64,000 nt of DNA, from positions 10,000 through 73,999 of the forward strand of contig CANQQX010000001.1 of the NCBI GenBank assembly GCA_947626115.1, given 5' to 3'. The translations under genes were made by a program, and so were the position numbers. The stretch's first letter is position 1; each line of letters begins with the position of its first letter. The notes under the pieces were generated by a model. It was not told the origin of the DNA and ran no database searches. It worked only from the letters and a program-made list of their open reading frames with translations. The stretch is from an uncultured Bacilli bacterium (lineage in GTDB: Bacteria > Bacillota_I > Bacilli_A > RF39 > UBA660). Shown here piece after piece: positions 4,013-62,632 of this stretch.

Positions 4013-4591
4013 ATGAAATTTGAAAAAGAAATAACTGTTGAGATTAATACTAGTCTTAAAAATCTTGAAAGCATTTTGAAAGAAAACAATTTTAAAATAA
4101 AAGAAATATATGATATAAACGATATCTATTTATTAAATAAAAATATTGAAAAAAGTAATAATACTTTGGAATTATTAAAAAATTGTGTTTTGATTAGACA
4201 TATTATTGAAAAGAATAAAGAATATAAAATGATTACTTATAAATATAAAGATTATAATGATAAAAATGAAATAATTAAGCAAGGCAAAATAAATTGTTAT
4301 ATAGATTCAATAGATGAAGCTGAGCAATTATTTAAATATTTAAACTATGAAAAATTGTTAGAAATATATGACCATTCTTTCGTATATGCTAATGATGAAG
4401 ATGAATTTGTTGTTCAAAGTGTTAATAATAAACATATTTATATAGAAGTAGAAGATAAATGTCATTATATAGATAAAGAGTACAAAAATATTGAAGAGAT
4501 GAAAAAAGTAATTAACAAATATAATATTTCAATTAAAAGTAATGATTATTTTGTAAAAAAAGCAGAAGTTGAAATGTTAGAAAAAAAATAA
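4013..4591 (+). CDS. CYTH-domain protein (class IV adenylate cyclase / triphosphatase fold), tentative
   Basis: 192 aa, opening with an EIE/EIT-type strand (MKFEKEITVEIN) and carrying acidic YIEVED-type motifs arranged like CyaB/CYTH proteins. Weak motif-level call only. Confidence 0.35.
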   Translation: MKFEKEITVEINTSLKNLESILKENNFKIKEIYDINDIYLLNKNIEKSNNTLELLKNCVLIRHIIEKNKEYKMITYKYKDYNDKNEIIKQGKINCYIDSIDEAEQLFKYLNYEKLLEIYDHSFVYANDEDEFVVQSVNNKHIYIEVEDKCHYIDKEYKNIEEMKKVINKYNISIKSNDYFVKKAEVEMLEKK

Positions 4592-4609
4592 ATTTAAAGA
4601 GGTACAATA

Positions 4610-5149
4610 ATGAATAAGATATATATTGTTAGACATGGTCAAACTGATTGGAATGTTAAAGGATTATTACAAGGAACTACAGATATTAAGTTAAATGAAG
4701 AGGGCATTAATCAAGCAAAAGAATTAGCTAATAATTTAGATTTAAGTAAAATTGACATTTGTTTTTGTTCTCCTTTAAAAAGAACTAAACAAACTGCTGA
4801 AATATTAGTGGGTGATAAACTAAAAATAATTTATGATTCAATGATAGTAGAAAGAAATTTTGGCAATTATGAGGGAAAACCAATTGACTTTAATTTAATT
4901 GAACAACAATGGGATTATAAATTAAATGATAGTTCACATAATATAGAAAGTTTAAAAGATTGTTTATTTAGAGCTAAACAATTTTTGGATAAAATAAAAA
5001 AAGAATATCCTAATAAAACAATTTTAATAATTTCCCATGGTAGTTTTATAAAAGCTTTACATTTTAATTTAATAGGATATGATGAAAATACGGATTTTTT
5101 ATCATTTAATCCTAAAAATTCTATAGTTTATGAATATGAAATGGATTAA
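4610..5149 (+). CDS. Histidine phosphatase family protein (phosphoglycerate mutase-like)
   Basis: N-terminal RHGQTDWN catalytic motif with a conserved His near the C-terminus (ISHGSF). Confidence 0.8.
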   Translation: MNKIYIVRHGQTDWNVKGLLQGTTDIKLNEEGINQAKELANNLDLSKIDICFCSPLKRTKQTAEILVGDKLKIIYDSMIVERNFGNYEGKPIDFNLIEQQWDYKLNDSSHNIESLKDCLFRAKQFLDKIKKEYPNKTILIISHGSFIKALHFNLIGYDENTDFLSFNPKNSIVYEYEMD

Positions 5150-5204
5150 ATATAAATTAATTGATGATTGATTATTAACAAAAATGTTAGTATAATTATT
5201 TTAA

Positions 5205-5326
5205 CATCTTATAAAGAGCGATGGAGGGACTAGCCCTAGGAAGTCGCACCAACCTATTTAGTTAGGTGGTAATGCTAGATCTATAAGATAACTTTATACT
5301 CAAGGTTATCTTGGGTGTTTTTTTAT
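5205..5326 (+). promoter_or_regulatory. SAM-I (S-box) riboswitch with an intrinsic terminator in the expression platform
   Basis: tcttataaagagcgatggagggactagccctaggaagtcgcaccaacc...ggtggtaatgctagatctataagat matches the S-box consensus (CTTATCAAGAG..GGAGGGAC.GGCCC..GAA..C.GCAACC...GGTGCTAA...AGATAAG). It is followed by the hairpin aagataac/ggttatctt plus T7, which overlaps the 3' strand of P1. Confidence 0.85.
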
Positions 5327-5402
5327 GAGATGCTAAAGAAAGGAGTATCTATGAAAAAATTATTTTAGGTGGGTTTACTTTTAATTAGGAAGGAGTTTTA
5401 TT

Positions 5403-6185
5403 ATGATAGAAAAAGTAAATCCAAGTCATCCTGATAAGATAGCTGATAGAATAGCTGGGGCAATAGTTGATTTAGCTTATACTAAATGTGAAAATCCAAA
5501 AGTAGCAGTAGAGATTTTAATTGGGCATGGTGTATGCCATATAATAATGGAAACATCAGAAAAATTTACAAAAGATGAAGTAGAAAAAATATTAAAGAGA
5601 ATTGCGGGTGATATCAAATTAGATTTAAAAGTTTATAAACAAGATGCACATCTAGCCTTAAATCAAGAAAATGATATTAGATGTGGTGATAATGGTATTT
5701 TTAAAGGTGTACCTTTAACTAAAGAAGAAAAGGAGTTATCAAAAATAGCAAGAGAGATATATCAAGAATATCCTTATGATGGTAAATATATTTTAGATCA
5801 AGACAAATTAGTCATATGTCAAAGTAATGCTTTAAAAGAAGATTTAATTAAAAAATATCCTGAAGCTATTATTAATCCATTAGGTAATTGGACAGGTGGC
5901 ATAAATGTTGATAGTGGTGCTACCAATAGAAAATTAGGTTCTGATATGGGACATAGTGTTACTGGTGGAGGACTACACGGTAAAGATTTATCGAAAGCTG
6001 ATGTTTCTCTAAATATTTATGCTTTTAAAAAAGCTCAAAAATTACAAAAAGAAGTAAATATTAGTTGTGCTATTGGTGATACTTTTGTAGATGGTAAGTC
6101 ATATAAGGAAATAGTTGAAGAAACTAGACAATATATTAAAGAAGTTGGTGGCTTTGAAAAATTTGCTGAATGGGGATTATTTTAA
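5403..6185 (+). CDS. metK: Compact S-adenosylmethionine synthetase (MetK)-like protein
   Basis: N-terminal SHPDKIADRIAGAIVD matches the MetK GHPDKIADQISDAVLD motif. CGDNGIF aligns to GAGDQG, and INPLGNW...GGGLHGKDLSKADVS aligns to INPTGRF...GGGAFSGKDPTKVDRS, all in colinear order. The protein is only 260 aa against about 385 aa for MetK. The RBS is aggaaggag. Confidence 0.5.
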   Translation: MIEKVNPSHPDKIADRIAGAIVDLAYTKCENPKVAVEILIGHGVCHIIMETSEKFTKDEVEKILKRIAGDIKLDLKVYKQDAHLALNQENDIRCGDNGIFKGVPLTKEEKELSKIAREIYQEYPYDGKYILDQDKLVICQSNALKEDLIKKYPEAIINPLGNWTGGINVDSGATNRKLGSDMGHSVTGGGLHGKDLSKADVSLNIYAFKKAQKLQKEVNISCAIGDTFVDGKSYKEIVEETRQYIKEVGGFEKFAEWGLF

Positions 6186-57613: not shown

Positions 57614-58243
57614 ATGAGTAACTTAGCAAAAATAAAATTATATTTAATTAAAAGTGGCTTTGATAAAGATGTTGTATTAACTTTACCAAAAATATTTGTG
57701 CAAGAATATTTAGAAAAAGATTATGATAAATTAAGTGAATTATTAGATGTTTTTATTGATTATGTCTACAAATCACCAAAATATTTGAATCAACAGGCCA
57801 AATTTGGTAATATTTCTTGTGTTCATAATAAAGATGCAGAATTAAATCATGAAAGTGTATATAATAGTTTTAAAAATAAAATAATTGAATCTTTTCACAC
57901 ATTTATTACTAGACAGCCACTTAATAGTATTTTAAGTATTGGTGGTAATCCTAAAAATGCTAATGATAATAATTTATTTTTTAATGAATGCATTGTTGTT
58001 GATCCAAATCAATATGGTGATTTAGTTTGTTTACAACCATATTTTAATGTTTTAGATAAAAAAGGAAATGAAATATATTTTATCAGAATTAATGATTTAT
58101 CTAATCTTTTATTAAGTAAAGGCATTAATTTAGAAGATGTAAGTATAATTATGACAACTAATAATAATGGTTTATATATTAATCCTTTAGCCATAAAAAG
58201 TTTAGGTTCAGTAGAAGTAGAGCATACAAATCTTAAAAAGTAA
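57614..58243 (+). CDS. Hypothetical protein
   Basis: 209-aa ORF with RBS aaggag. No recognisable motif. Confidence 0.45.
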   Translation: MSNLAKIKLYLIKSGFDKDVVLTLPKIFVQEYLEKDYDKLSELLDVFIDYVYKSPKYLNQQAKFGNISCVHNKDAELNHESVYNSFKNKIIESFHTFITRQPLNSILSIGGNPKNANDNNLFFNECIVVDPNQYGDLVCLQPYFNVLDKKGNEIYFIRINDLSNLLLSKGINLEDVSIIMTTNNNGLYINPLAIKSLGSVEVEHTNLKK

Positions 58244-59099: not shown

Positions 59100-59111
59100 G
59101 AGAAATAATTT

Positions 59112-60008
59112 ATGTATGATTTAATAATAATAGGTATGGGTATTGGTGGTGTAACTGCAGGTATTTATGCCAAAAGAGCCAACTTAAATGTTTTGCTTAT
59201 AGATAAAGGTGCTGTTGGTGGCATGCTTAATAATATTGAAACTATTAGTAATTACCCTGGCTTAATAAATATTAATGGGGCTGATTTTTCTCAAAAATTA
59301 TTAGAGCAAATTAAAGATTTAGAAATACCTTATCAATTTAGTGAAGTAATTGATTTAAAAATTCAAGGTGATGAAAAAATAGTAGTAACTAAAAATGAAG
59401 AATTACGTGCTAAATATGTGATAATTGCAACGGGTACTAAGCCTAAATTTTTAGGCCTTGATAATGAAAAAGATCTTTTAGGTCGTGGCATTAGTACTTG
59501 TGCAACTTGTGATGGAGCATTTTATAAAGATAAAGATGTAGCTGTAGTAGGTAGTGGTTCAAGTGCTTTACAAGAATCTTTATATCTTGCTAAAATATGT
59601 CATAAAGTTTATATTTTAAATCGTAAAGATAGATTTAAAGGGGAAAAATATTTAGAGACTAAAGTTAGAAATACTAAAAATATGGAAATTATTTGTAATG
59701 TAAATATTAAAGAATATAATGAAGTCAATGGCAAAATAGAAAGTATTATTTTAGATAATGAGCAAAAATTAGATGTTGCTGGAGTATTTATCTATATTGG
59801 TTATAAACCTAATACAGAAATATTTAATAATTTAAATATTTTAGATGAACAAAGTTATATCAAAGTAAATGAAAAATATGAAACAGAAATAGATGGAGTA
59901 TATGCCATTGGTGATGTTATAAAAAAAGATGTCTATCAATTAGTAACTGCAGCCAACGATGCAATATATGCTATTAGTAATATATCAAAAAAAGTACTAT
60001 ATATATAA
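59112..60008 (+). CDS. trxB: Thioredoxin-disulfide reductase
   Basis: FAD motif IIIGMGIGG, redox-active CATCDG, and the second dinucleotide-binding site VAVVGSGSSA. Confidence 0.9.
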   Translation: MYDLIIIGMGIGGVTAGIYAKRANLNVLLIDKGAVGGMLNNIETISNYPGLININGADFSQKLLEQIKDLEIPYQFSEVIDLKIQGDEKIVVTKNEELRAKYVIIATGTKPKFLGLDNEKDLLGRGISTCATCDGAFYKDKDVAVVGSGSSALQESLYLAKICHKVYILNRKDRFKGEKYLETKVRNTKNMEIICNVNIKEYNEVNGKIESIILDNEQKLDVAGVFIYIGYKPNTEIFNNLNILDEQSYIKVNEKYETEIDGVYAIGDVIKKDVYQLVTAANDAIYAISNISKKVLYI

Positions 60009-60098
60009 ATGAGAGGAGAATTTTATGTGAGTTTATAAATAAAAAATATTAATTAATTTTAGAAATGTGTTAAAATAAATATGAAAGGGAGTTCAAAT

Positions 60099-60335
60099 AT
60101 GAAAAAAGAAGATAAAAATTATAAATATTTTAGAAAAGAAGAAGAAACTTTAAAAAAGAAATATGTTAATGAATTCATTATAATTTATAATGAAGAAGTT
60201 GTATTCCATAATAAGGATTTAAACAAAGTAATTGACTATGCAAGACAACTTGAAGCTGGGAAATATATTATACAAAATTGCGAAACAAATGAAGCAAATA
60301 ATATTCAAATGTTTCATACTAGGGTAACATTTTAA
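60099..60335 (+). CDS. Small conserved protein, partner of the downstream retropepsin-like gene
   Basis: RBS aaagggag before the ATG at 60099. Its stop TAA overlaps the next start (TAATG). About 78 aa. Confidence 0.45.
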   Translation: MKKEDKNYKYFRKEEETLKKKYVNEFIIIYNEEVVFHNKDLNKVIDYARQLEAGKYIIQNCETNEANNIQMFHTRVTF

Positions 60336-60949
60336 TGCAAGATTTTACTGCGTTTACAAAAGAAGAAAAGGGAAGAATAAAAGTATTAAAAACTCAGATT
60401 TCAATTATTATAGACAAAAAGATAAATCCATATTATAAAAAAGATAATGATTCATATGAGGCAATTTGGGATACAGGAGCAACAAATACTGTTATATCAG
60501 AGAAATTAGCCAAAGAATTAAATTTAACATCTGTCGGAAAAGCAAGAGTTGGTACTGCTGGTGGAATTATAGAAGTTGATAAATATATTTTGGGATTAAA
60601 ATTGCCAAATAATTTACAAATAAAAAACGTAATGATAACTGCTGGAAAATTATATGGTACAGATTTTTTAATCGGAATGGATATTATTACTTTAGGTGAT
60701 TTTTCAGTTACAAATTTAAATGGAAAAACTACTTTTTCGTTTAGATATCCATCTTGTGAAACTATTAATTACGTAACTGAAGCAAAAGAATTACAACGCA
60801 AAGAATTACAAAAACAATTAAAGCAAATTGAAAAAGAGATAAAAAAAGGTGGTAAATGTCCTTGTGGAAGCGGTAAACAATTTAGATATTGCCATGGCAG
60901 AGAACAAATGAAGCAAGTGAAGGAAAGTTTAGAAAAAATTAGTGTTTAA
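60335..60949 (+). CDS. Retropepsin-like (clan AA) aspartic protease with C-terminal SEC-C zinc-binding motif
   Basis: Active-site IWDTGATNTVIS (DTGA), a second hydrophobic-Gly motif FLIGMDII, and C-terminal CPCGSGKQFRYCHG as the SEC-C motif. Confidence 0.65.
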   Translation: MQDFTAFTKEEKGRIKVLKTQISIIIDKKINPYYKKDNDSYEAIWDTGATNTVISEKLAKELNLTSVGKARVGTAGGIIEVDKYILGLKLPNNLQIKNVMITAGKLYGTDFLIGMDIITLGDFSVTNLNGKTTFSFRYPSCETINYVTEAKELQRKELQKQLKQIEKEIKKGGKCPCGSGKQFRYCHGREQMKQVKESLEKISV

Positions 60950-60969
60950 TATGTAAATGAAGTGATAAT

Positions 60970-61725
60970 ATGATAAAAAATTTATTAGTAATTTTTACTG
61001 ATCCTTTTAATGTTTTATTTATAGTTATAATTATTTTGCTAACTATTTACTATGCTAAAATAATTGGCTATATGGGTGAATTTTGGGTTAGACAAGAATT
61101 AAAAAGATTAAATAAAAAAGAATATATAACTTTGAATAATATTATGTTGAAAGAAAATAATGAAACACATCAAATTGATCATATAGTATTATCTAAATAT
61201 GGTATATTTGTTATTGAAACTAAAAATTATAGTGGAATAATTAAAGGCAATAAATATAGTAATGAATGGATGCAAATACTAGGAAGAAATAGATATTATT
61301 TTAAAAATCCTATTTATCAAAATTATGGTCACATAAAAACTTTAAGTAGTATATTAAATTTAGATGAAAAATATTTTATATCTATAATCTGTTATTCTAA
61401 TCATTCTAGACTAAAAGTTAATGATAAAAATGTTATTAATTTGGATTTTTTAAATAAAACTATATTAAATTATAATGATATTATTTTAGATAAAAACTTG
61501 GAAGAATTAAAAAATAATATAATACAAAATAATATTGTTGATAAAAAAATACGCAAAGGGCATGTGAAAGAAATAAAATCTAAAATAAAAGACCAAAATG
61601 CTTTAATTGAAAATGGTATTTGTCCTAAATGTGGTGGTAATTTACTAAAAAAGCATAGTAAATATGGCTATTTTTTAGGATGTAGTAATTATCCAAAATG
61701 TCGTTTTATAAAAAATATTAAATAA
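60970..61725 (+). CDS. NERD-domain protein with C-terminal topoisomerase-type C4 zinc finger
   Basis: GEFWVRQEL...HQIDHIVLSKYGIFVIETKNYSG is the NERD core. CPKCGGNLLKKHSKYGYFLGCSNYPKCRF is a zf-C4_Topoisom-type finger. N-terminal TM helix. Confidence 0.75.
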   Translation: MIKNLLVIFTDPFNVLFIVIIILLTIYYAKIIGYMGEFWVRQELKRLNKKEYITLNNIMLKENNETHQIDHIVLSKYGIFVIETKNYSGIIKGNKYSNEWMQILGRNRYYFKNPIYQNYGHIKTLSSILNLDEKYFISIICYSNHSRLKVNDKNVINLDFLNKTILNYNDIILDKNLEELKNNIIQNNIVDKKIRKGHVKEIKSKIKDQNALIENGICPKCGGNLLKKHSKYGYFLGCSNYPKCRFIKNIK

Positions 61726-61780
61726 CTTAATAGGAGTTTTATTATTTTTATTGTATAATTAATTTGTAGGTGATTTTTCT

Positions 61781-62632
61781 ATGTTAGTAAGTAATAATTG
61801 GCAAGATTATAAAATACTTAAAACAAGTAAAGGAATGAAACTTGAAAGTTGGCAAGATATTTTACTTTTAAGACCAGATCCTGTGATTACTTGGGATTTA
61901 GGTGATTTTTCCGAATATAAAATAAACGCTATCTATCATCGTAGTAATACTGGTGGAGGACATTGGGAAAATAAATTAAAAACACCTGAAAATTGGGTAA
62001 TTAATTATAAAGATTTAAAATTCTTAATTAAAGAAATGGGTTTTAAGCATACAGGTATATTTCCCGAACAAGCCTGTAATTGGGATTATGCCATGGATAA
62101 AATAAAGGAAAGTAATAGAGAGATAAAAGTATTAAATTTATTTGCCTATACTGGAGGAGCTACGGTTGCTTGTCTTAAAGCTGGGGCTAAAGTTACTCAT
62201 GTTGATTCATCTAAAGGCATGATTGAATGGGCGAAAGAAAATGTTAGACTTAATAATTTAGAAGATAAACAGGTGCGTTATTTAGTCGATGATGTTATTA
62301 AATTTGTGAAAAGAGAAATAAGACGTGGCAACAAATATGATGCCATTATTATGGATCCTCCTAGTTATGGCAGAGGTGCTAATGGTGAAGTTTGGTCATT
62401 AGAGAGTGACTTAGAAAACCTAATTAAATTATGTAAGGAAATATTAGATGATAATTTTCTTTTCTTTATAATTAATACTTATTCAACTAATCTACCTAAT
62501 ATATCTTTAGAAAATATTTTAAAACTTAATTTTAAAAATAAAAAAATTTTAGTTGATGATTTATGCTTACCAATTGAAAATAGTAATTTATATTTATCTT
62601 GTGGTATTACAGGAAGAGTAGAAAATGAATAA
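61781..62632 (+). CDS. Class I SAM-dependent RNA methyltransferase (RlmI/YwbD-like)
   Basis: SAM-binding LFAYTGGATVACLKAGA...THVDSS, acidic loop YLVDDV, and the catalytic IIMDPPSYGRG (DPP motif). Confidence 0.65.
   Translation: MLVSNNWQDYKILKTSKGMKLESWQDILLLRPDPVITWDLGDFSEYKINAIYHRSNTGGGHWENKLKTPENWVINYKDLKFLIKEMGFKHTGIFPEQACNWDYAMDKIKESNREIKVLNLFAYTGGATVACLKAGAKVTHVDSSKGMIEWAKENVRLNNLEDKQVRYLVDDVIKFVKREIRRGNKYDAIIMDPPSYGRGANGEVWSLESDLENLIKLCKEILDDNFLFFIINTYSTNLPNISLENILKLNFKNKKILVDDLCLPIENSNLYLSCGITGRVENE

Follow-up and report, generated by a model that had tools for sequence, protein, structure and literature searches.

The genes described here lie at positions 60,099 to 61,725 of a 64,000-nucleotide stretch of DNA, referred to below as the window, from an uncultured Bacilli bacterium of the lineage RF39 (GenBank contig CANQQX010000001.1, positions 10,000 to 73,999). 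A small gene related to the Pfam family DUF5678 is followed there by the gene for a retropepsin-like aspartic protease with a SEC-C motif, and then by the gene for a protein with a NERD domain and a zinc ribbon, all three in the same direction. An original prediction, made from the nucleotide sequence, had described them as a possible defence or toxin-like trio. The trio was not retained. The small gene and the protease gene form an autonomous two-gene cassette, close to obligate and without a conserved third partner, and the NERD gene has no relation to it beyond sharing a variable slot of the chromosome.

The coordinates of both genes of the pair and the single base shared by them were read directly from the sequence, as had been predicted for a ~78-aa protein whose stop overlaps the start of a 204-aa protease (Table 1). 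The TAATG overlap implies that the two genes are coupled in translation. An alternative ATG of the small gene at position 60081 would give a product of 84 aa. The start at 60099 was favored because a GGGAG Shine-Dalgarno sequence is located 8 nt upstream (60086-60090) and because homologues have 77-78 aa. The protease stop and the NERD start are separated by 20 nt. No terminator-like site was found between the three genes in the region, and in this AT-rich DNA promoter-like matches between them did not exceed the background of shuffled sequence. The predicted flanks, trxB and a methyltransferase gene, were both recovered.

Table 1. Features of the locus, in window coordinates
Feature	Position	Strand	Description and basis
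Small partner gene	60099..60335	+	Open reading frame (ORF), 78 aa, divergent DUF5678-like; proposed cognate inhibitor/regulator of the protease
C-terminal tail codons of the small gene	60282..60332	+	Residues 62-78, ETNEANNIQMFHTRVTF; family consensus xPGxxxYTQTFHSRVxF; proposed docking/pseudo-substrate segment
TAATG stop/start overlap	60333..60337	+	Read from sequence; TAA 60333-60335 and ATG 60335-60337 share one base
Retropepsin-like aspartic protease gene	60335..60949	+	204 aa; Pfam, AlphaFold2 (AF2), Foldseek
Catalytic motif D46-T47-G48-A49	60470..60481	+	Invariant in 94 homologues; aligns to D25-T26-G27-A28 of human immunodeficiency virus type 1 (HIV-1) protease
SEC-C zinc knuckle C175-x-C177...C186-H187	60857..60895	+	CPCGSGKQFRYCH at residues 175-187; Pfam SEC-C
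NERD and topoisomerase-type zinc-ribbon gene	60970..61725	+	251 aa; Pfam; neighbor outside the module
TrxB-like Pyr_redox_2 protein with CATC motif	59112..60008		Upstream flank of the pair
PF10672 (Methyltrans_SAM) methyltransferase	61781..62632		Downstream flank of the NERD gene

The linkage of the two genes was examined in a cellular and a viral set of loci. For the cellular set, a pattern scan of one genome per species yielded at least 544 confirmed relatives, from which 80 loci were kept. For the viral set, at least 180 viral contigs with the protease were found in IMG/VR, and 80 loci were kept here too. ORFs were called in each locus, and a hidden Markov model (HMM) was built from the upstream ORF. 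A homologous small gene was present directly upstream and on the same strand in 82 of the 84 cellular loci with a callable upstream ORF (HMM E ≤1e-19), and adjacent upstream of the protease in 79 of the 80 viral loci. The HMM match always reached the C terminus of the upstream ORF, just ahead of the protease start, and the spacing in the homologous loci was mostly an overlap (-1, -4 or -8 nt) or a gap of <30 nt. The pairwise-identity matrices of small protein and protease correlated with r = 0.54, compared with a maximum of 0.25 in 500 shuffles, and the two proteins are therefore co-inherited. All-against-all clustering of ~730 neighbor ORFs gave no recurrent third partner, the largest cluster comprising 3 of ~83 loci. 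The original prediction was right in pairing the small protein with the retropepsin, and it had under-stated their linkage.

The cassette occurs in more than 12 phyla, with proteases at only 35-45% identity. The kept cellular loci derive from uncultured Bacilli/Tenericutes-like metagenome-assembled genomes and from Bacteroidota, Chloroflexota, Nitrospirota, Acidobacteriota, Verrucomicrobiota, Planctomycetota, Spirochaetota, Thermotogota, Desulfobacterota and three lineages of the candidate phyla radiation. No match to the family was obtained among the plasmids of PLSDB, and the GenBank phages gave five weak matches, three of them Leptospira LE1-like phages. One of these, vB_LinZ_10-LE1, carries the pair (KF114880.1, 44708-45501). 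Its 80-aa small gene is annotated as hypothetical, and the overlapping 183-aa protease gene, which encodes the motifs AIWDTGAM and LIGMDII and a basic tail ending in RKTSRRR, is unannotated in GenBank. The family is thus almost missing from collections of cultured material and is concentrated in uncultivated lineages; Tenacibaculum and the Leptospira LE1-like phages are carriers that are experimentally accessible.

A protein collection contained 887 homologues of the protease, and 94 homologues were used for the AF2 model and for the conservation analysis. The Pfam profiles gag-asp_proteas (PF13975; 39.4 bits, cut-off 28.2) and Asp_protease_2 (PF13650; 35.0 bits, cut-off 24.3) both matched above their cut-offs, and together with the DTGA motif at residues 46-49 they bear out the predicted clan AA aspartic protease. 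In the 94 homologues G114 and M115 are invariant and D116 is conserved at ≥90%, G114 aligning to G86 in the G-x-D motif of HIV-1 protease. The model (predicted local distance difference test [pLDDT] score 95.5) consists of a retropepsin core (residues 1-140), a long helix (146-171), the SEC-C motif (175-187) and a terminal helix (187-203). In Foldseek searches of the PDB it matched APRc (5c9f; E 7e-8, 14% identity), the proteases of HIV-1, feline immunodeficiency virus (FIV) and equine infectious anemia virus (EIAV), and Ddi1, each with a probability of 1.00. On this modeled structure the 204-aa protein is a clan AA retropepsin-like aspartic protease with a single-lobe fold. The invariant DTGA, the G-M-D motif and the confident model predict that it is an active enzyme. 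Retropepsins act as homodimers to which each subunit contributes one aspartate, and by analogy the window protease is inferred to be a dimer. The DTGA motif notwithstanding, the score against TIGR02281 (clan_AA_DTGA) was 16.6 bits, below the NCBIfam cut-off of 57.95. No profile match placed the protease in a housekeeping family, a placement that the original prediction had named as an argument against itself. Matches of the pair to PHROG families were weak or absent.

Retropepsins are well understood in retroviruses and as eukaryotic Ddi1; to our knowledge, APRc, RimB and RloA are the few bacterial ones that have been characterized. APRc (RC1339 of Rickettsia conorii), the bacterial retropepsin characterized best so far and also the best structural match, shares with the window protease the single-lobe clan AA fold and the catalytic DTG, but the two are only 14% identical. 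APRc is reportedly membrane-embedded and surface-exposed and is said to act on autotransporters and immunoglobulins; we know of no small partner gene or SEC-C motif for it. HIV-1 protease and Ddi1 align with the window protease in fold, in the DTGA and G-x-D motifs and in the flap glycines, whereas the retroviral and Ddi1 enzymes have neither the C-terminal helix nor SEC-C. RimB and RloA belong to other families and operons (rimABK, or secreted) with no DUF5678 partner, SEC-C motif or mobile cassette, and the RloA2 structure 9g59 was a weak Foldseek match to the window protease at rank 47. RimB of Pseudomonas is described as a cytoplasmic retropepsin-like enzyme in ribosome modification by polyglutamylation of RpsF (PMC11957791), and RloA proteins as periplasmic bacterial retropepsins (PMC12239564). 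RimB thus offers a precedent for a bacterial retropepsin at the ribosome.

The SEC-C motif of the protease was matched by PF02810 marginally above the cut-off (21.3 bits, cut-off 20.4), and C175, C177 and C186 are invariant. The motif itself had been predicted correctly; the statement that the protein ends in it did not hold, as a 17-residue helix follows. SecA, YecA and YchJ carry a similar CxCxSGx8C(H/C) knuckle at or near the C terminus, after a flexible or helical linker. The present knuckle differs from theirs in being joined to a protease and in being apparently interchangeable with a polybasic tail. Canonical SEC-C was found in 71 of 81 non-redundant cellular homologues, and ~6 of the remaining 10 end in a Lys/Arg-rich tail. 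Because such tails replace SEC-C in some homologues, we propose that the C-terminal module anchors the protease to a polyanionic surface, which could be the ribosome, RNA or a membrane. The ribosome would be the leading candidate, since the metal-binding domain of SecA, the prototype of SEC-C, is reported to bind SecB and ribosomes (bioRxiv 10.1101/613315).

The helix-plus-SEC-C tail (60764-60949, residues 144-204) also matched the PADLOC models E2 and E1-E2 in 94 of 94 family members (best E 9.6e-9), and 67 of the 94 matched PDC-S12 in addition. The E2 and E1-E2 models presumably represent accessory proteins of the type found in cyclic oligonucleotide-based antiphage signaling systems (CBASS). 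The matches suggest that the helix-plus-SEC-C tail may be a portable module common to several defence-associated proteins. The protease core in turn resembles the retropepsin-like domain in the B component of PDC-M08, a multi-gene phage-defence candidate of PADLOC, with 72 of the 94 family members matching (best E 1.1e-8). This likeness is confined to the domain, the window protease itself giving an E value of 2.3e-3, and the B models span ~128 positions without the helix or the SEC-C tail. Membership in PDC-M08 was rejected: the B model was weakly matched and the small protein matched no PDC-M08 model.

For the small protein, which the original prediction had left unnamed, an identity can be added. 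Residues 24-64 of the 84-aa form matched DUF5678 (PF18929) with 28.7 bits (cut-off 23.2, E 1.2e-6), and by its sequence the protein is a divergent DUF5678 branch, many homologues being weakly matched or unannotated. An indexed search returned 2,364 matches to the family (1,986 clusters at 50% identity), nearly all of ~80 aa. The AF2 model, of moderate confidence (pLDDT 73), has an alpha-beta-beta-alpha-beta core made of a helix, a beta-hairpin, a helix and a strand. No significant relative was found in the PDB (best Foldseek E 0.64, best hmmsearch E 0.21). Ribbon-helix-helix, helix-turn-helix and RelE-like identities are accordingly not supported, and neither a fold nor a profile of the ribbon-helix-helix, helix-turn-helix or AbrB-like kind was detected.

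The last ~17 residues are the most conserved part of the small-protein family. Q59, C61 and R75 are invariant in the family, and Q70, H73 and V76 are conserved at ≥90%. The block-mean pLDDT of the modeled tail is 57 for residues 61-70 and 42 for residues 71-78, with residues 65-67 and 73-78 below 50, so that the tail is predicted to be disordered despite its strong conservation. A conserved yet unstructured tail is the usual sign of a segment that folds on a partner. Because the protease is the sole constant genomic partner, we propose that the tail folds on the protease. No fusion of the small protein to the protease was found among the top 150 representatives. N-terminal ORF extensions occur among the representatives, and in two proteins (P0270, 181 aa; P0383, 188 aa) the small-protein domain is tandemly duplicated in one polypeptide, the tails of the copies being degenerate. 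Such duplications would match a dimeric partner.

As a measure of covariation between the two proteins, mutual information with average product correction was computed for 141 non-redundant pairs of small protein and protease (effective number 125). The four strongest links of the tail to the protease joined Q70 of the small protein to N51, V53, T102 and G104, and V72 was the fifth partner of Q70. When the five highest-ranking partners of each residue were considered, partners in the active-site loop (residues 46-53) made up 7 of 65 for the tail (residues 66-78) compared with 6 of 305 for all other residues of the small protein (odds ratio 6.0, p = 0.003). For the segment 99-113 the values were 13 of 65 and 23 of 305 (p = 0.005). 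Tail partners were depleted in the part of the protease formed by the C-terminal helix and SEC-C. When the two enzymes were aligned on their shared motifs, HIV-1 protease had D30, V32 and I47 at the positions of N51, V53 and V72; these three HIV-1 residues line the S2/S2' subsites. Sub-clades with other tails (AYTVTI..., AYTNYI... and xVHxFQGNVxP) differ correspondingly in the residues around the pocket. The covariation is suggestive of direct binding between the two proteins through the tail and the active-site loop.

Related genomes at the chromosomal site were found by a metagenome search with the downstream methyltransferase. In the closest relative (L094), UvrA, Lgt and the methyltransferase are 87%, 76% and 82% identical to the proteins of the window. 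There lgt is followed directly by the methyltransferase gene after a 93-nt gap, and the pair is missing (4059-5849). A second relative (L095, 1-2105) has at the same junction an unrelated ORF of 335 aa whose product has a hydrophobic segment at the N terminus. As the two relatives differ there, the junction of lgt and the methyltransferase gene is a variable slot, filled in the window (59100-61780) by trxB, the pair and the NERD gene. Three loci with proteases 71-80% identical to that of the window (L008-L010) have none of its flanking genes. Elsewhere the pair was located beside a DpnII restriction-modification system and Mrr in one locus, and beside a Gabija-like OLD/UvrD pair and a Dcm methylase in another. 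Further neighbors were LmuA (Lamassu), type I and II methyltransferases, PglW/MADS-like (BREX/MADS) kinases and tRNA synthetases. In viral contigs the neighbors were integrases, CI-like repressors, anti-repressors (Ant) and endolysins or amidases, and 30 of the 80 viral copies lay within 3 kb of a contig end, compared with 17 expected. This position is typical of lysogeny-expressed accessory cargo of temperate phages. The pair is thus horizontally mobile between bacteria and temperate phages. The predicted conflict-locus interpretation is upheld to the extent that the pair is mobile and patchy, occupies a phage accessory slot and has some defence neighbors; it fails for the NERD gene as a component.

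Taken together, these features resemble those of type II toxin-antitoxin systems. As in such operons, two adjacent, overlapping and co-directional small genes are mobile and patchily distributed, with copies in prophage accessory regions and beside defence genes, and the C-terminal tail of the small protein is conserved and predicted to be disordered. With median isoelectric points of 5.4 and 8.9, the small protein is acidic and the larger one basic. Orphan small genes exist and orphan large genes almost never do. A scan of viral contigs seeded with the small gene, for which a narrower small-protein alignment was used, gave 46 loci. In 39 of them the protease followed downstream, one was cut by the contig end, and in six a solo small gene was followed by unrelated ORFs. 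These six solo genes (in L239, L244, L260, L268, L275 and L284) are full-length with intact conserved tails. Of the 45 viral loci whose downstream sequence was long enough, 6 thus had a solo small gene, whereas a recognizable small gene was lacking at 3 of 164 protease loci (p = 0.004). Such an asymmetry would be expected of a protease that does harm on its own and a small protein that neutralizes it.

To one reading we give a probability of about 0.5: the pair would work in the manner of a type II toxin-antitoxin or abortive-infection module, with the tail of the small protein occupying the cleft of a surface-anchored retropepsin. In the proposed mechanism, the acidic small protein would bind the basic protease, and its tail (YTQTFHSRVxF) would enter the substrate cleft, where N51, V53 and V72 would form the S2 or S2' pocket that receives Q70. 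Acting as a pseudo-substrate, or else as a pro-segment that is supplied in trans and cleaved slowly, the tail would keep the protease inactive. Tethering of the protease to a polyanionic surface, with the ribosome as first candidate, would be the task of the SEC-C knuckle or, in some homologues, of the Lys/Arg-rich tail. If the small protein were lost or displaced upon phage infection, element loss or stress, the protease would cleave cellular or phage proteins. A parallel for the proposed role of the tail exists in HIV-1, where the peptide directly upstream of the protease (transframe/p6*) sits in the cleft and holds the enzyme back until its own cleavage. Unlike that peptide, the pro-segment proposed here would be a separate, folded and translationally coupled protein, with no polyprotein and no retroelement context.

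Several points weigh against this reading. Unlike in most type II antitoxins, no DNA-binding fold, profile or domain could be recognized in the small protein. Among the 164 loci there is one clear solo protease (L030, 1493-1969), whose DTGS motif is intact, and the solo-gene comparison mixes two differently seeded searches. The covariation is coherent but modest, was computed from 141 pairs with no correction for phylogeny, and its partner slots are non-independent. The top pairs were already known when the region 99-113 and the composite "site" were delimited, and for T102 and G104, which lie where the pairwise alignment with HIV-1 protease is unreliable, no proximity to the cleft is claimed. 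Neighbors in chromosomes are equally often housekeeping genes, the defence neighbors being individual cases. The small protein and 36 relatives gave no PDC-M08 or other meaningful match when compared with the PADLOC models. The solo protease homologue itself has 158 aa, no SEC-C and no upstream small gene, and is preceded by an unrelated 186-aa ORF; that it is a dead pseudogene was rejected, given the intact DTGS motif.

On the toxin-antitoxin-like or abortive-infection-like reading, the solo small proteins of phages may be orphan inhibitors. In its fullest form, which we put forward tentatively, the pair would be a toxin-antitoxin or abortive-infection system of a new class: a tail-inhibited retropepsin would be the effector, its SecA-like zinc knuckle would keep it on the ribosome or another polyanionic surface, and the orphan small proteins of some phages would act in counter-defence. 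We know of no described toxin of a toxin-antitoxin system with a retropepsin fold. Literature searches found no retropepsin-fold toxin, no function for DUF5678, no SEC-C aspartyl protease in defence and no paper on PDC-M08. One subfamily of retropepsins is thus half of a very widespread two-gene cassette for which no literature or PADLOC entry was found. If the protease were a regulated toxic effector, the enzymes known from toxin-antitoxin and abortive-infection biology would be joined by a new class. The pair would then also provide a simple bacterial model of retropepsin inhibition by a pro-segment in trans, and a testable role of SEC-C outside SecA.

The same tail could instead be a true substrate. 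The pair would then be a processing module in which the small protein is the dedicated substrate and the protease, as maturase or antitoxin, clips the tail and thereby activates an effector or toxin or frees a peptide. Conservation, disorder and S2/S2' covariation of the tail would suit this equally well, and a toxin-first gene order is generally known from toxin-antitoxin families. The invariant Q59, C61 and R75 and the nearly invariant H73 of the small protein could be functional themselves. However, solo small genes in phages without the protease are hard to square with a need for maturation or neutralization. The 78-aa protein has no fold match and no hint of enzymatic or pore-forming activity, and the consensus places a Thr on both sides of Q70, beta-branched residues being, as is generally known, poor at P1 of retropepsin substrates. 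We consider a processing module unlikely.

Judged slightly less probable still is a non-toxic regulated protease for which the small protein serves as activating or targeting adaptor, for example in a lysogeny/induction switch of phages that cleaves a repressor or host factor in an ImmA-ImmR-like manner. The viral pair does occur beside CI-like repressors, anti-repressors and integrases, but cargo for lysogenic conversion or defence is just as typically located in the slot that separates the lysis genes from the integrase. Translational coupling and co-inheritance would suit any obligate heteromer. Most cellular copies, including that of the window, lie outside recognizable prophages with no repressor nearby, and no recurrent neighbor presents itself as a possible substrate. 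A vertically inherited housekeeping cytoplasmic protease with its chaperone, as the position of the window pair among the core genes uvrA, lgt, trxB and rRNA-modification genes might suggest, is very improbable: the closest related genomes lack the pair at the syntenic site, close homologues lie in unrelated contexts, and the pair is spread over more than 12 phyla at 35-45% identity and on phages and reaches no curated housekeeping family.

Equally improbable is the predicted three-gene defence or toxin system of small protein, protease and NERD/zinc-ribbon nuclease. The call of a NERD protein with a topoisomerase-type zinc finger directly downstream was itself accurate, with 102.9 bits for NERD (PF08378, cut-off 22.1) and 58.4 bits for Zn_ribbon_Top1 (PF01396, cut-off 32). 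A trio would also be in keeping with the shared strand, the 20-nt gap between protease and NERD gene, the lack of a terminator-like site in the region, the repetition of the arrangement in other contigs, and the occurrence of NERD domains in BREX PglW and the MADS kinase. However, tblastn found no NERD homologue within ~6 kb of the pair in 87 cellular or 80 viral loci (0 of 167), and phmmer at E ≤1 found none among the 3,996 ORFs of ≥80 aa in the 167 loci (1.68 Mb). The original prediction had itself named a lack of co-occurrence elsewhere as speaking against a trio, and for the NERD gene this is what was observed; as a conserved system, the trio is thereby refuted. NERD is also absent near the relatives with 71-80% identical proteases (L008-L010). 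The contigs that contain the full trio were found through identical proteins; they encode identical proteins and so belong to the same strain. Related genomes carry other cargo between lgt and the methyltransferase gene, and the GC content of the NERD gene, ~18.5%, is distinctly lower than that of the adjacent genes (24-28%) and the lowest of the 10-kb region, where values up to 35% occur. The NERD gene may be a separate horizontal acquisition.

The NERD protein matches phrog_21557 (function not assigned) over its full length, and its N terminus is hydrophobic and probably membrane-spanning. The trxB-like gene on the other side of the pair is not syntenic in the two relatives L094 and L095. 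The interval between uvrA and lgt is variable too: in the window (57614-58243) it holds a 209-aa ORF with no Pfam or PHROG match, and in L094 (1704-4037) a membrane protein of 777 aa whose C terminus is Gly-rich.

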